Source: Prochlorococcus sp. AG-679-M23
GTDB lineage: Bacteria; Cyanobacteriota; Cyanobacteriia; PCC-6307; Cyanobiaceae
Assembly: GCA_003208875.1 (NCBI GenBank)
Contig: QCUR01000004.1
Coordinates: forward strand, 131,121 to 195,120
DNA: 64,000 nucleotides
Direction: 5' to 3'
Part shown: positions 4,130 through 58,723 of the stretch, piece by piece
Layout of the letters: every line of letters starts with the position of its first letter
Numbering within the stretch: position 1 is the first letter of the stretch
Notes under the pieces: generated by a model
What the model saw: only the letters and a program-made list of their open reading frames with translations
Database searches by the model: none
What the model was told of the DNA's origin: nothing
Translations under genes and position numbers: made by a program

Positions 4130-5659
4130 CTAGTGAGCCTCCTCTGTTTTTTTATCTAAAGACATTCCAATAATTTGAGCGGAATGAATGTTGTCCCTAT
4201 CTCTAATAGTAAGACAAGTGTGCAACAAACCTTTATCAACTAAATTTTTATATCTAATTGATATCGCATTATTGACTCTATAACAATCTTTTGCAGCCCT
4301 ATCTTTTGCTCCGGGTACTTTACCAGAATAATCAAATCTTATTACTACGGGAATAGGTAGATCTTGAGAAACATTTAATCCTGTAAAAATCTTTACTCCT
4401 ACATCCAAATCAGGAGCCCCTTCTTCAACTGTATCAAGATGAGCAAAATAAGTTAAATTTCTTAGATGAACTTCTTTAAAACCAATCCCAACTCCAATAA
4501 ATCTTTCAGCATGACCAATATCTTCATAAGATCCTTTATGAAATTTCTTAACATAATCAATCTGAGAAATATTATTGACTATTAATTTAAAGACAAACTT
4601 GTCCAATCCCTTTAGTTGACCCTTATTAGAATTTCCTGAAATAATCTGACAAATTTCTTTTTCTGCTTCGTCTTTTGAAAAATTTATTGTGGAATTGTAA
4701 ATATCTAAACTAGAAATAGTATTTTCTAAATCAATCTTTCCGTCACTTGAAGATAAATGAATCTTTAACGAATCAGTATCAGTATCAAGACCAATTAACA
4801 TAAGATCTACTGAAGCGCCGCAGCAGAAGCTATTTTCAACAGCCTCCTTAAAAGCTAGTAATTTTTCACGACCCTCTTTAGCTGCTAATTTATCATCACT
4901 ACCATGAGCCGCACATCCCTGATGCAAAGGGTCAACAGAACTAAAATGGTATGTGACGATTTTTAAATACCTTGTATCTTCATGGGCTTCATTTGGATTA
5001 TTTTCTCTATATCTTTTATGTTCAGTTTTTACCCATCTATTCACAGTATTTTCAATATCAAAGAGTGCGCCTGCATGTGATCTTCTTCTAACTGCACTAA
5101 ATGGAATTCTCATTACATAAGCAACTGAATGAGCTAATCTTCCGTCAGAGCACGGTGTTATGTCTAACAAGTGAATTCCACAATCTAGCAGTGCTTTCTC
5201 AAAATTATTTGCGTTAGGACTACCAGAAGAGCCCTCTAACGGGTCATTTTCGAAAAAATTATCGCTTAATTTCTCATGCTGCTTAAAAGCGCACCATGCA
5301 TACAAGGCCCTCATATCTAATGGTTTAACCCAAGATTTATCTAAAATATGCGTTGGTAAATTTATTCCTAAATTTTTATTAGATATAGATTGAGCTGTAT
5401 TTATGAAATCCTCATGATGTTGTATACGAGCAATTTCTTTCAAAGTAGGAACAATTCTGTCAAAACTACTTTTTATTTGACTTTCATATTTATAAAGTTT
5501 TTCATTCTGAGAATTATTAGTTAAGTTATGAGTCTTTTCAATATTTCTTAAATTATTTATTTCATTATTCTGTGAATGAACATTTTCTGTAAAGGTTTTC
5601 ATTGGAGCGGTTGGCCCCAATGTGAAGTTCTTGGCTTTAGCCAGTCCTCTCAAAGGCAT
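4130..5659 (-). CDS. csoSCA: Carboxysomal beta-carbonic anhydrase
   Basis: PCSDGRL, HFSS...GCAAH zinc ligands; GHAERFIGVG; operon position. Confidence 0.95.
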   Translation of the reverse strand: MPLRGLAKAKNFTLGPTAPMKTFTENVHSQNNEINNLRNIEKTHNLTNNSQNEKLYKYESQIKSSFDRIVPTLKEIARIQHHEDFINTAQSISNKNLGINLPTHILDKSWVKPLDMRALYAWCAFKQHEKLSDNFFENDPLEGSSGSPNANNFEKALLDCGIHLLDITPCSDGRLAHSVAYVMRIPFSAVRRRSHAGALFDIENTVNRWVKTEHKRYRENNPNEAHEDTRYLKIVTYHFSSVDPLHQGCAAHGSDDKLAAKEGREKLLAFKEAVENSFCCGASVDLMLIGLDTDTDSLKIHLSSSDGKIDLENTISSLDIYNSTINFSKDEAEKEICQIISGNSNKGQLKGLDKFVFKLIVNNISQIDYVKKFHKGSYEDIGHAERFIGVGIGFKEVHLRNLTYFAHLDTVEEGAPDLDVGVKIFTGLNVSQDLPIPVVIRFDYSGKVPGAKDRAAKDCYRVNNAISIRYKNLVDKGLLHTCLTIRDRDNIHSAQIIGMSLDKKTEEAH

Positions 5660-9966: not shown

Positions 9967-10278
9967 TTAGTCCTTTTGACCAAGGAAATCGCCATTACCA
10001 AGTGCTGGCTCAACTTCTCTATGAGGGCGAGCAATGATGTGAGCTGCGACAAGACCGTCACCAACTCTCTCACAAGCATCAGCTCCAGCTCTTACTGCTG
10101 CGTTAACAGCTCCCGTTTCTCCTCTAACTAAAACTGTGACATAACCGCCACCTACGAATTCACGACCAATAAGACGAACTTCTGCTGCCTTGGTCATTGC
10201 GTCTGCTGCTTCGATTGCAGGTACAAGTCCGCGTGTCTCGATCATGCCGAGTGCGATACCCATTGTTTCTGTAGCCAT
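9967..10278 (-). CDS. csoS1: Major carboxysome shell hexamer (BMC-H)
   Basis: ALGMIETRGLVPAIEAADAMTKAA...HIIARPH. Confidence 0.98.
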   Translation of the reverse strand: MATETMGIALGMIETRGLVPAIEAADAMTKAAEVRLIGREFVGGGYVTVLVRGETGAVNAAVRAGADACERVGDGLVAAHIIARPHREVEPALGNGDFLGQKD

Positions 10279-10315
10279 TGCCTACTAATTACTAAATGTG
10301 GAATGTTCAATCCGA

Positions 10316-10345
10316 AGAATGGTCCATAACGTACTGATAAGTCAA
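10316..10345 (-). promoter_or_regulatory. Candidate sigma70-type promoter of the cso operon
   Basis: Minus strand TTGACT (10345-10340), 18-nt spacer, CATTCT (10321-10316); implies a TSS near 10311-10308. Confidence 0.5.
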
Positions 10346-10438
10346 GCATTTTTAACTAAATACTCTATTAATGTTTTTTCTATCATTGATAAGTTAAACT
10401 TATCACCCTTGCTATTATTGATATGTCAATACTTATCA
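10335..10438. promoter_or_regulatory. Array of TGATAAGT half-sites and palindromes, LysR (CbbR/RbcR)-type operator
   Basis: TGATAAGT-taa-ACTTATCA (10387-10405, contains TAA-N7-TTA), TGATATGT-caat-ACTTATCA (10419-10438), half-site TGATAAGT at 10335-10342. Confidence 0.6.
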
Positions 10439-10495
10439 AAATTAGTTAGTGCATCAAAACATACGGTTGTGTTAATAAAAAATTTACATTAAGTT

Positions 10496-10568
10496 ATGCG
10501 CGTACGAGACAGGCCCTGTCTACACAGGTGTGGAATGTTCAACCTCTCCTGTCTCTGTATCAAGTTTT
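10496..10568 (+). ncRNA. Candidate structured small RNA complementary to the csoS1 5' leader
   Basis: 34 of 65 nt are G/C at 10496-10560; nested stems; 14-nt exact repeat of 10297-10310; TACATT -10-like box at 10485-10490. Confidence 0.5.
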
Positions 10569-10603
10569 AAAGTAAGATAATATTCAGAAATTTTTATATT
10601 ATT

Positions 10604-11191
10604 TTGGATTCTCCTTCTGTTCTTACTATTGCAAGCGGAAATCAGAAGAAGGTATCTGAAATATTAGAGATGTTAGATGTCCTATCTTTAAAAGTAAAAA
10701 AACAACCCGAATATTTAAATGTTGAAGAGACAGGCAAAACCTATTTTGACAACGCTTTTTTAAAAGCAAAAGCAGCTTCTTTAGAGACTAAGACTTGGGC
10801 CTTAGCTGATGACTCAGGGCTTGAGGTTGATTATTTAGATGGGAGACCGGGCATATATTCGGCAAGATATGCCAACAATAATGATGAAAAGCTTATTAAG
10901 TTATTAAGAGAGCTAAGTGATATCCCTTACAGAAGCGCAAAATTCATTAGTTGTATGGTTCTATGTGATCCAAAAGGAAATTTGGTAAAAGATGCAACGG
11001 GTATTTGCTGGGGGGAAATTCTTAAAGAACCAAAATATCCTAACGGAGAATTTGAATCTATTTTTTGGGTTAAAGAGGCTAATTGTGTTTATGGAGAATT
11101 AAGTCATTCTCAATTAATTAAATTAGGCAGTAGAGGAAAAGCCGCAAAAAATATAGCTCCTTTTTTAAAAAAAGAATTTGGAATAGATTAA
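10604..11191 (+). CDS. Non-canonical purine NTP pyrophosphatase (Ham1/RdgB family)
   Basis: ASGNQKK, EETGKTY..NA..KA, ADDSGLEV, PGIYSARY; TTG start. Confidence 0.92.
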   Translation: MDSPSVLTIASGNQKKVSEILEMLDVLSLKVKKQPEYLNVEETGKTYFDNAFLKAKAASLETKTWALADDSGLEVDYLDGRPGIYSARYANNNDEKLIKLLRELSDIPYRSAKFISCMVLCDPKGNLVKDATGICWGEILKEPKYPNGEFESIFWVKEANCVYGELSHSQLIKLGSRGKAAKNIAPFLKKEFGID

Positions 11192-11199
11192 AAATCTAT

Positions 11200-11970
11200 T
11201 TAATAGTTTGATATTTGATCAATTGCTCTTATCGCAGCTGCTGCGGCCTCTTCAACATCTCCCTCTTTCCCTGCGAGAGTAAGCCTTCCAAAGGCTCCAA
11301 CGGCTTTTACATCAATGATGGTTATATTAGCGGATTTTTCAGCTTCATTAGCTGCCTTAAGTACATATCCCGCTGGTTCAGTCTCCAAAATAAACATGCT
11401 CATTCCAGATTGAATCATAGATCCACTTCTATTTTGCCTGTTGATTAAAACTGCATGATCTGGAGTAATTGCACGAATAACTTCTGTCCAACTTGTTGAT
11501 GGCTTGGTTCTTTTCCTCACTTCACTCCCAATAGCATCTAAAACCACATCTCCTGAATGCAAAACTGTACTTTGGTCCTTATGGTAAAGAGCTAAAGAGC
11601 CAAAGGCTCTTTCCACAATCATCTGACCTAGCCTTACATTACTTGCCTTTAAAGCTATATCAGTAACCCTATGAACTGCCATTCCGGGAGAAACTTCCAT
11701 CCATAGGCAAGAATCACCAGGTATTGGTAAAAAACCTCTACTAACAGTTCCCATATATGCAGCTAACTGAGGTTGTAAAGAGTCTAAAAAAACATATGTC
11801 CTTAATTCTATTTGCTCAACTTGACTTGCTTGTCTTGAAACTAATGACTTTTCAGAGTCAGTTGTTATAAAACAGCTAGCTCCATTGGACTGAGATTGAA
11901 CTTCAGATCCAGTAATAAGAGAACTTCCTTTTCTTCGATCTCCTCTATTTAAGCTAGAAGTTGGTTCCAT
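11200..11970 (-). CDS. csoS1D: Tandem-domain carboxysome shell protein (BMC-T)
   Basis: [36 protein letters not shown]. Confidence 0.94.
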
Positions 11971-58396: not shown

Positions 58397-58723
58397 AACT
58401 TTTTCTTAGTATTGGATTGTTGAACATTACACAAAGTGCTTTTGCATATTTTAAGTATTCTGTTTTTAAGGGAGACATGAAGCTTTGATCATTGAATTAA
58501 AATTCAAAAATTGATCTGCCAGTCTGAGAAATCCTAAGACTTTTTACTTTAGGTAATCTATAACACTATTTAAATTTTTCAACAATAAAAAAAAAATTTA
58601 TCTAAACACAATTTTTGTGAGTTAGTTCTTCTAATCTTTAAGGCAAACTTTTACTACTAAGTGTATAAATTCGTCTTAATTAAATTTTTACCTAGTTAAA
58701 TTCATCGTAGAAAGGAGTCCACT

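Follow-up and report, generated by a model that had tools for sequence, protein, structure and literature searches.

Among the described RNA regulators, the closest counterparts of the element reported here are the base-pairing small RNAs (sRNAs) of cyanobacteria, such as Yfr1 and Yfr10 of Prochlorococcus and PsrR1, short structured RNAs that present a conserved single-stranded motif complementary to an mRNA. One of them, Yfr10, has been reported to pull down the csoS1 and csoS2 mRNAs in strain MED4 (PMC6778093). The hairpin that we describe, located between the carboxysome-Rubisco (cso) operon and the divergent ham1 gene, shares this general design. Unlike the Yfr RNAs and PsrR1, it shows no Rfam match, terminator or mapped 3′ end, it sits at the 5′ end of a protein-coding transcript, and it would target the outermost 5′ bases of the divergent operon next door.

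Three other kinds of systems offer partial parallels. The so-called actuatons are units where one promoter yields an sRNA plus, by read-through, the mRNA of the next gene. Our locus resembles them in having a dedicated start site for a structured RNA just upstream of a same-strand gene, which has a proximal start too, a likeness in the layout of start sites. As in small riboswitch aptamers and cis-regulatory leaders, we find a 5′ leader with two covarying helices and an invariant loop, present once per genome before one gene family; unlike them, the hairpin has no visible expression platform or suggested ligand, and its loop is complementary to another conserved RNA. Finally, a cis-antisense case in the same group of organisms also involves an RNA-RNA duplex on an mRNA, and suggests a possible route by which 5′-end pairing could alter decay. 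In contrast to that fully overlapping antisense RNA, the complementarity here is limited to a motif of 9-15 nt, encoded from 196 nt to 1.9 kb away.

The window, by which we mean the whole 64,000-nt stretch of Prochlorococcus sp. AG-679-M23 DNA that was analysed, contains csoS1 followed downstream by rbcL, rbcS and csoS2, all of them on the − strand according to its list of open reading frames (ORFs). A 325-nt spacer separates csoS1 from ham1. The features of interest are:

9967-10278, − strand: csoS1, first gene of the carboxysome-Rubisco operon and source of the proposed partner mRNA (Pfam BMC domain, E 1.5e-26)
10297-10310, − strand: copy 1 of a repeated 14-mer, start of the csoS1-rbcLS mRNA (5′-AACAUUCCACA...), 19-32 nt upstream of the csoS1 ATG
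10307, − strand: cso start site, inside copy 1, by alignment transfer of MED4 518681 (+)
10316-10345, − strand: cso core promoter as inferred from sequence reading, with −35 TTGACT (10345-10340) and −10 CATTCT (10321-10316; CATTGT in relatives)
10490-10495, + strand: −10 box TAAGTT (TATGTT in most of the genus) of P2, the distal promoter in the ham1 direction
10503, + strand: P2 start site, at the base of the outer helix, by alignment transfer of MED4 518485 (−)
10504-10557, + strand: GC-rich island forming a conserved structured element matched by covariance model R1 (own-genome match G000:C4:141624-141677, 69 bits), made of an outer helix, an inner hairpin and an invariant loop
10506-10513, + strand: 5′ strand of the outer helix, GAGACAGG, which pairs with 10548-10555 (RNAfold, RNAalifold)
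10515-10528, + strand: inner hairpin CCUGU-CUAC-ACAGG (RNAfold), longer in relatives (e.g. CCCUAGG..CCAAGGG), with an internal mismatch there
10526-10547, + strand: loop AGGUGUGGAAUGUUCAACCUCU, single-stranded and near-invariant, containing copy 2 of the 14-mer (10529-10542)
10548-10555, + strand: 3′ strand of the outer helix, CCTGTCTC (RNAfold, covariation, RNAalifold)
10576-10586, + strand: proximal ham1 promoter P1, with −10 GATAAT at 10576-10581 and a start near 10586 (MED4 518401, −)
10604-11191, + strand: ham1, non-canonical purine NTP pyrophosphatase family (Pfam PF01725, E 7.5e-44)
11200-11970, − strand: tandem-BMC gene for a 256-aa BMC-domain protein, which we take to be CsoS1D-like, convergent with ham1 (inter-ORF gap of 8 nt)

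A transcript of the csoS1D-like gene, if unterminated, would run antisense through ham1 toward the hairpin. As for csoS1 itself, the 44 nt that separate PMM0549 from its start site in MED4 imply that the gene is annotated there from a codon 15 nt inside the ORF used here (10264-10278), its second Met; the longer ORF, beginning MATETM, is kept in all relatives.

A first-pass annotation of this DNA had pointed out a 14-mer present exactly twice, once 19-32 nt before the csoS1 ATG and once within a potential two-stem structure. A window search bears this out: TGTGGAATGTTCAA (+ strand reading) occurs at 10297-10310 and 10529-10542. A third near-copy with one mismatch (TGTGTAATGTTCAA) lies at 58420-58433 on the − strand. 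Several exact 14-mer repeats would be expected by chance anywhere in 64 kb (~2e9 position pairs x 4^-14), and a repeat per se is not rare; the pair is notable because both copies fall in one 325-nt spacer, where the chance expectation is about 2e-4. Four more copies of TGGAATGTTC elsewhere in the genome all lie within long ORFs and were taken as chance occurrences.

Both 14-mers are invariant in the 30/30 loci aligned within the genus, where the whole spacer finds a match in 31/36 other genomes at 86-98% identity; among 25 genomes from other families it finds none. In the 30 genus loci, the spacer up to about position 10580 (10279-10580) is more conserved than the first codons of ham1, which indicates a constraint on more than the hairpin alone. 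When the same spacer was used for a family-wide DNA search, only two segments matched outside the genus, namely 10526-10555 (the loop and the 3′ stem) and 10338-10425. GGAATGTTC occurs twice in 18 of the 20 retrieved loci, at 20-30 nt before the csoS1 ATG and then 231-235 nt further on, within the hairpin. The distance between copies is 230-238 nt in most relatives (231-235 in 70 loci), with outliers of 257 (n=2) and 306. Two other conserved features of the spacer can be mentioned. Positions 10387-10405 form a perfect 19-nt palindrome, TGATAAGTTAAACTTATCA, with a T-N11-A core, and related GATAAG...CTGATCA words occupy the same place in relatives; it may be a site for the LysR-type regulator RbcR. 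A near-palindrome at 10416-10431, TATTGATATGTCAATA, with 7/8 arm positions, is invariant in the 30 genus loci.

Published start sites of MED4 were transferred to the window via genome G015, in whose coordinates csoS1 starts at 518710, the hairpin spans 518431-518484 and window position 10603 equals 518384. The ham1 start is thus 518383, which agrees with both ham1 rows of the MED4 tables. The distal row, 518485 (−), lies 102 nt upstream of PMM0548, with differences of 216, 462 and 595 and a p of 0 (Read et al. 2017, PMC5607370, Tables S9-S11), and corresponds to one base before the start of the R1 model. It is present in three of the four TSSAR tables, the N-replete 12 h table being the one that lacks it, and is classed by those authors simply as the primary start of PMM0548 (PMC5607370). 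The proximal row, 518401 (−), is 18 nt upstream of the same gene (differences 240, 148 and 159; PMC5607370), and the P1 sequence AAGTAAGATAAT is nearly invariant within the genus. On the other strand, 518681 (+) maps 44 nt upstream of PMM0549, with differences of 90415 in N-replete and 1859 in N-starved cells at 12 h (PMC5607370, Tables S8 and S9). This cso site is called at 12 h in both treatments and is absent from both 24-h tables, which call only internal csoS1 sites (PMC5607370); its loss may reflect how the caller behaves at very high cover, or else the time of day.

A + strand start had been anticipated near 10496, and the mapped one falls at 10503. The box originally assigned to it, TACATT at 10485-10490, is too far from this start, and the conserved −10 is instead TAAGTT at 10490-10495: in 74/76 distinct upstream regions a TANNNT hexamer begins 14-10 nt ahead of the first position of the model, and it is conspicuous in GC-rich genomes. 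From the P2 start to the divergent cso start (10307) there are 196 nt. A similar layout can be seen in Synechococcus CC9605, for which in situ mdRNA-seq reports a ccmk1 start at +716414 and ham1 starts at −716220 and −716107 (PMC5069720). With the ham1 ORF of CC9605 revised to end at 716089, the proximal start is 18 nt upstream of the revised ham1 start (PMC5069720), and the distal one and the cso start are separated by 194 nt, compared with 196 in MED4; by this spacing, the distal start would lie at the hairpin base. The cso core promoter has its counterparts as well, with GTCAAG and ACAATG at the same distance in relatives. A simple consensus scan for promoters and terminators over 10230-10660 called 0 sites, the cso core promoter included. 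The consensus of the scan is too strict for these promoters, because published start sites exist where it calls none.

Folding of the window sequence with RNAfold returns the architecture already proposed in the first-pass annotation: an outer stem of 10502-10513 with 10548-10560 (bulge at 10556), an inner hairpin at 10515-10528, and the motif left unpaired in the centroid, with a mean unpaired probability of 0.64 over 10529-10542. The energy of this single-sequence fold is ordinary (z −1.1 on the + strand, 24/200 shuffles being as good; z −1.6 on the − strand), so the structure cannot be argued from the window alone and the case rests on comparison. Among 45 distinct sequences aligned with MAFFT, 357/360 cells of the outer helix pair when read on the + strand, 19 of them G-U, and 341/360 when read on the − strand; there are 19 G-U pairs versus 3 A-C mismatches on the + strand, and 19 A-C mismatches on the − strand. 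In a second alignment, 81 matches were fitted to model R1. There, all 8/8 outer pairs change on both sides with 96.7% of cells paired, none of 500 shuffles (0/500) reaches the observed scores, and RNAalifold recovers the same 8 pairs. Variants with pairing kept include GAGACAGG/CCTGTCTC, GGAACCGG/CCGGTTCC and GCAACACG/CGTGTTGC, and in larger genomes the sequence of the helix is rewritten with its pairing retained. In the genus of the window the outer helix is extended by pairing of 10503-10505 with 10557-10559 (bulge at 10556), and A10509 is replaced by G in about a third of the loci; this G faces T10552, so that the + strand forms a G-U pair where the − strand has a C-A mismatch.

The inner hairpin shows changes on both sides in 5/6 modelled pairs, with 81% of cells paired, in a part where the alignment is uncertain. 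For both helices together, the model alignment gives 65 G-U versus 22 A-C, whereas the mean minimum free energy (MFE) does not separate the strands (−22.56 for +, −22.54 for −). Within the loop, GGAATGTTC is invariant and its flanks almost so, both among the 45 sequences and in the 81-row alignment; the consensus G(G/U)GUGGAAUGUUCAACC is almost invariant and GGGGUGGAAUGUUCAACCC barely varies. A variant locus was found in genome G081, about 230 nt upstream of csoS1, where the outer stem is kept (CGAGAGAGG/CCTGTCTC), the loop differs (UGGUCUUUUCAUCCC) and the cso 5′ motif is intact.

The covariance model search was performed on 151 genomes of the family with a completeness of at least 90%, and R1 gave one match per genome in 78/151 of them, in 24/36 genera and with genomes of 2-3.9 Mb among them, a breadth that also sets the hairpin apart from the Yfr RNAs and PsrR1. 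In a class-wide sample, strong matches occur in 8/12 genomes of the family, and four weak ones (E 6e-4 to 8e-3) in 139 genomes of other families. Conservation of both copies and of the stems thus reaches well beyond the genus, as the original proposal called for. The best explanation is a conserved structured RNA of about 55-60 nt that is confined to this picocyanobacterial family of sea and fresh water (Prochlorococcus, marine Synechococcus and their kin).

Regarding its neighbours, ham1 lies downstream on the strand of the hairpin in 79/80 loci; the exception, a weak match in genome G123 (L137) away from ham1, was discarded as false. The gene csoS1 is absent from the retrieved piece in 27/80 loci (26 without the false match). 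In the five such genomes checked (L144-L148, 2.4-3.7 Mb), csoS1 was found in 5/5 at 1.6-1.9 kb from the hairpin, with copy 1 still 23-25 nt before its ATG; the hairpin thus goes with ham1, and its distance from csoS1 need not be constant. The first-pass annotation had tied its candidate to the carboxysome operon, which holds for the target motif but not for the gene linkage, kept to ham1 and not to csoS1. In L146, the locus for which ORFs were listed, a 331-aa membrane protein and a 93-aa PII-like protein are encoded between csoS1 and the hairpin on the cso strand (L146:2017-3298), and the hairpin faces the first of these two sbtA-/sbtB-like genes, names that follow from resemblance and from the locus legend in PMC4499774.

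The hairpin loop and the first 9-15 nt of the csoS1-rbcLS mRNA are Watson-Crick complements of each other: transcription from 10307 begins with AACAUUCCACA, and the loop holds UGUGGAAUGUU. As the early proposal had placed its target at the very 5′ end of the mRNA, it is worth noting that with a start at 10307, as transferred from the MED4 tables, the transcript opens with 11/14 nt of the motif plus the 3′ extension. With G-U pairs allowed, the complementarity counted from mRNA +1 spans at least 9 contiguous nt in 70/76 genomes (median 14). The run that is identical between the copies measures 9-17 nt in 53/54 distinct copy pairs, and usually ends one base past the cso start site. Differences between copies beyond the 9-10 nt core show no clear bias, 17 being compatible with G-U versus 11. 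When the leader and the mRNA are folded together, the energy is −37.5 kcal/mol versus −27.5 for the two alone, a gain of ~10 kcal/mol that opens the inner hairpin, while the duplexfold energy, which ignores intramolecular structure, is no better than for shuffled targets (106/1000 shuffles).

On the cso side, 104 of 146 family genomes carry GGAATGTTC at 18-26 nt ahead of the csoS1 ATG. Hairpin and cso motif occur together in 77 of these 146 genomes, the hairpin alone in 1 (a single substitution in the motif), the motif alone in 27, and neither in 41. In other words, 77/78 genomes with the hairpin have kept the motif, against 27/68 without it, a co-conservation that had been put forward as a check on the idea. 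Nine genera wholly lack both, and in three mixed genera (g46, g53 and g65) the hairpin is confined to motif-bearing genomes. For these counts, hairpins were scored with R1 genome-wide under strict filters, in 71 genomes also with filters off over as much as 3 kb of DNA before csoS1 (1.5 kb in three cases), and with an added loop-motif pattern that contributed three loci by itself. Matches of this pattern to GAACTGTTCGCC in 12 genomes were coding sequence and were left out by a tighter pattern, and one in genome G201 was a false positive, removed from the counts. The genomes are related and not independent, so that the counts overstate the support and describe a pattern rather than a statistical test. 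The pattern fits a regulator that needs its target, and the 27 genomes with the motif and without a detectable hairpin indicate that the motif at the cso start has its own reason to exist.

The scan over 10230-10660 found no terminator-like site, and no U run follows the stem in the relatives examined, nor on the − strand. In the window, a + strand UUUU begins 5 nt past the stem, and most of the genus has CUUUG there; the hairpin does not have the form of an intrinsic terminator, that is, a GC-rich stem directly before a U run. Unstranded contigs from four RNA-library runs span the whole spacer, one of them at a depth of 502 from 10243 to beyond 10700, and were counted neither for nor against transcription. 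The discrete sRNA of 65-75 nt initially suggested is not borne out by the data, with no terminator after the hairpin. A divergently transcribed RNA stands as far as its own + strand promoter is concerned, but it may be the 5′ leader of the distal ham1 transcript and not a free sRNA.

Measured against what defines a base-pairing sRNA, the element has its own promoter and a start site mapped in MED4 and CC9605 and transferred by alignment, and its accessible seed and the target site that the seed can pair with are both conserved; nothing in 10230-10660, where no terminator-like site is called, points to a separate short product with an end of its own. Measured against a cis-regulatory leader, it stands before a single gene family on the strand of that gene (79/80 loci), and its structure covaries. 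We put at roughly 0.5 the probability that this new conserved RNA, either the leader of the distal ham1 transcript or a short RNA cut from it, pairs through its loop with the cso mRNA 5′ end. Among the mechanisms considered, this one has the best support, and its chief rivals are a leader serving ham1 only and a DNA operator shared by the two sites.

In this reading, P2 transcribes the hairpin on the + strand from the base of the outer helix at 10503, and the hairpin forms the 5′ end of a distal ham1 transcript, with P1 just downstream giving the proximal one. The two covarying helices present the loop G(G/U)GUGGAAUGUUCAACC, which would pair with the first 9-15 nt of the csoS1-rbcLS mRNA and so couple the two divergent transcription units at the post-transcriptional level; we infer that such RNA-RNA pairing would change stability or translation. 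The hairpin RNA, possibly as a short RNA released from the ham1 leader, could act on cso by masking the 5′ terminus of its mRNA along with the upstream margin of the ribosome site, 29 nt ahead of the AUG. Alternatively, the far more abundant cso mRNA could act on the ham1 leader. In the MED4 tables, the start-site signal of the hairpin (216-595) is 3 to 400 times weaker than that of cso (1859-90415) (PMC5607370), which makes a titration of cso mRNA by the hairpin RNA look unlikely and suggests that control may run from cso mRNA to ham1.

Among the alternatives, a purely cis-acting ham1 leader, either a small riboswitch or a protein-binding RNA whose loop is bound by a ligand or a protein, seems possible, if rather doubtful. 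The element begins the transcript, it stays with ham1 in 79/80 loci even where csoS1 is 1.6-1.9 kb off, and two covarying helices around an invariant internal loop are the usual look of a small aptamer; the resemblance to cso would then have to arise otherwise, for instance because the two sites descend from one ancestor or are bound by one DNA-binding regulator, and the 27 genomes that have the cso motif without a hairpin are in line with this. Nonetheless, no expression platform is seen, with no terminator in 10230-10660, and in MED4 and CC9605 a separate ham1 promoter, according to the published start sites, lies between the hairpin and the start codon. Furthermore, R1 matches once per genome and never before other genes, and such a leader leaves unexplained both why the hairpin is present in only 1/42 genomes whose cso 5′ end lacks the motif and why the shared run ends about at the cso start site.

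A more specific form of the pairing hypothesis, which we hold to be unlikely, would make the ham1-leader hairpin a sensor of the amount of carboxysome-Rubisco mRNA, where the first 9-15 nt of cso would act in trans and set ham1, or where both would limit each other. If true, CO2 fixation and a nucleotide-cleansing enzyme would be tied together by a conserved mRNA-to-mRNA link in the dominant phototrophs of the ocean, and the hairpin would represent a new RNA family.

It is quite improbable that the two copies are DNA operators of one transcription factor, one over the cso start and the other 27-40 nt inside the distal ham1 transcript, with the stems around copy 2 being incidental or serving only RNA stability. 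The stems covary for pairing and not for sequence, with G-U favoured on the + strand, which a site in duplex DNA does not need; and the tight spacing of 230-238 bp between these direct repeats in most genomes with adjacent genes, which would suit operators, is not required, as the copies are 1.6-1.9 kb apart in 5/5 genomes checked. The position of copy 1 at +1 to +11 is the classic one for a repressor, and the persistence of the motif at cso in 27 genomes without the hairpin also agrees with an operator; the invariance of copy 2, however, continues into CAACC, missing from copy 1 in most genomes. We know of no regulator with a site like this 14-mer. The other palindromes of the spacer suggest dense protein binding. 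Also on the side of operators, and of the pairing proposal too, the MED4 rows of cso and ham1 appear to move oppositely at 24 h of N starvation, reading 2.96 for ham1 and −3.04 for csoS1 (PMC5607370).

An action of the hairpin on the − strand, whether as an insulator or terminator against csoS1D transcripts antisense to ham1 or as part of a longer cso transcript, is very improbable: csoS1D (11200-11970, −) is convergent with ham1 and transcripts reading through from it would extend to the hairpin, the two strands fold equally well (mean MFE −22.54 for −, −22.56 for +) and the unstranded RNA-library contigs cover the whole spacer, yet the outer helix has 19 A-C mismatches on that strand versus 3 on the other, no T run follows, no − strand start upstream of 10307 appears among the MED4 table rows matched (PMC5607370), and it is the + strand that carries both the conserved −10 and the mapped start sites.

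Returning to the hairpin as an RNA that would pair with cso mRNA, the first-pass annotation had not recognised it as a described RNA, and Rfam 15 gives no match on the element: none reaches the gathering score in the 64-kb window, and at E values up to 10 the segment 10200-10700 yields only three chance-level matches to eukaryotic miRNAs or snoRNAs, none of them on 10496-10570. No description of the hairpin was found in the literature searched, a scope that stopped short of the start-site and ncRNA lists of Voigt et al. 2014. The main text of Steglich 2008 makes no mention of csoS1, ham1, PMM0548/9 or coordinates 5183-5186, and Lott 2020 names PMM0548 and PMM0549 only as low-ranked predicted targets of another sRNA. 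The hairpin is a real, conserved and previously uncatalogued RNA structure on the ham1 strand. The early interpretation is partly supported, and the observation behind it is real and larger than first seen.

Rubisco and the carboxysome shell, both products of the cso operon, belong here to organisms that account for a major part of the carbon fixed in the ocean and whose genomes contain very few protein regulators. A family-wide element with mapped starts and a precise target at the very beginning of the cso mRNA would open a way into the post-transcriptional control of carbon fixation. It would also add a new well-supported motif for Rfam-style annotation, with 8/8 covarying pairs in its outer helix, and might explain the retention of ham1 inside the carboxysome gene cluster.
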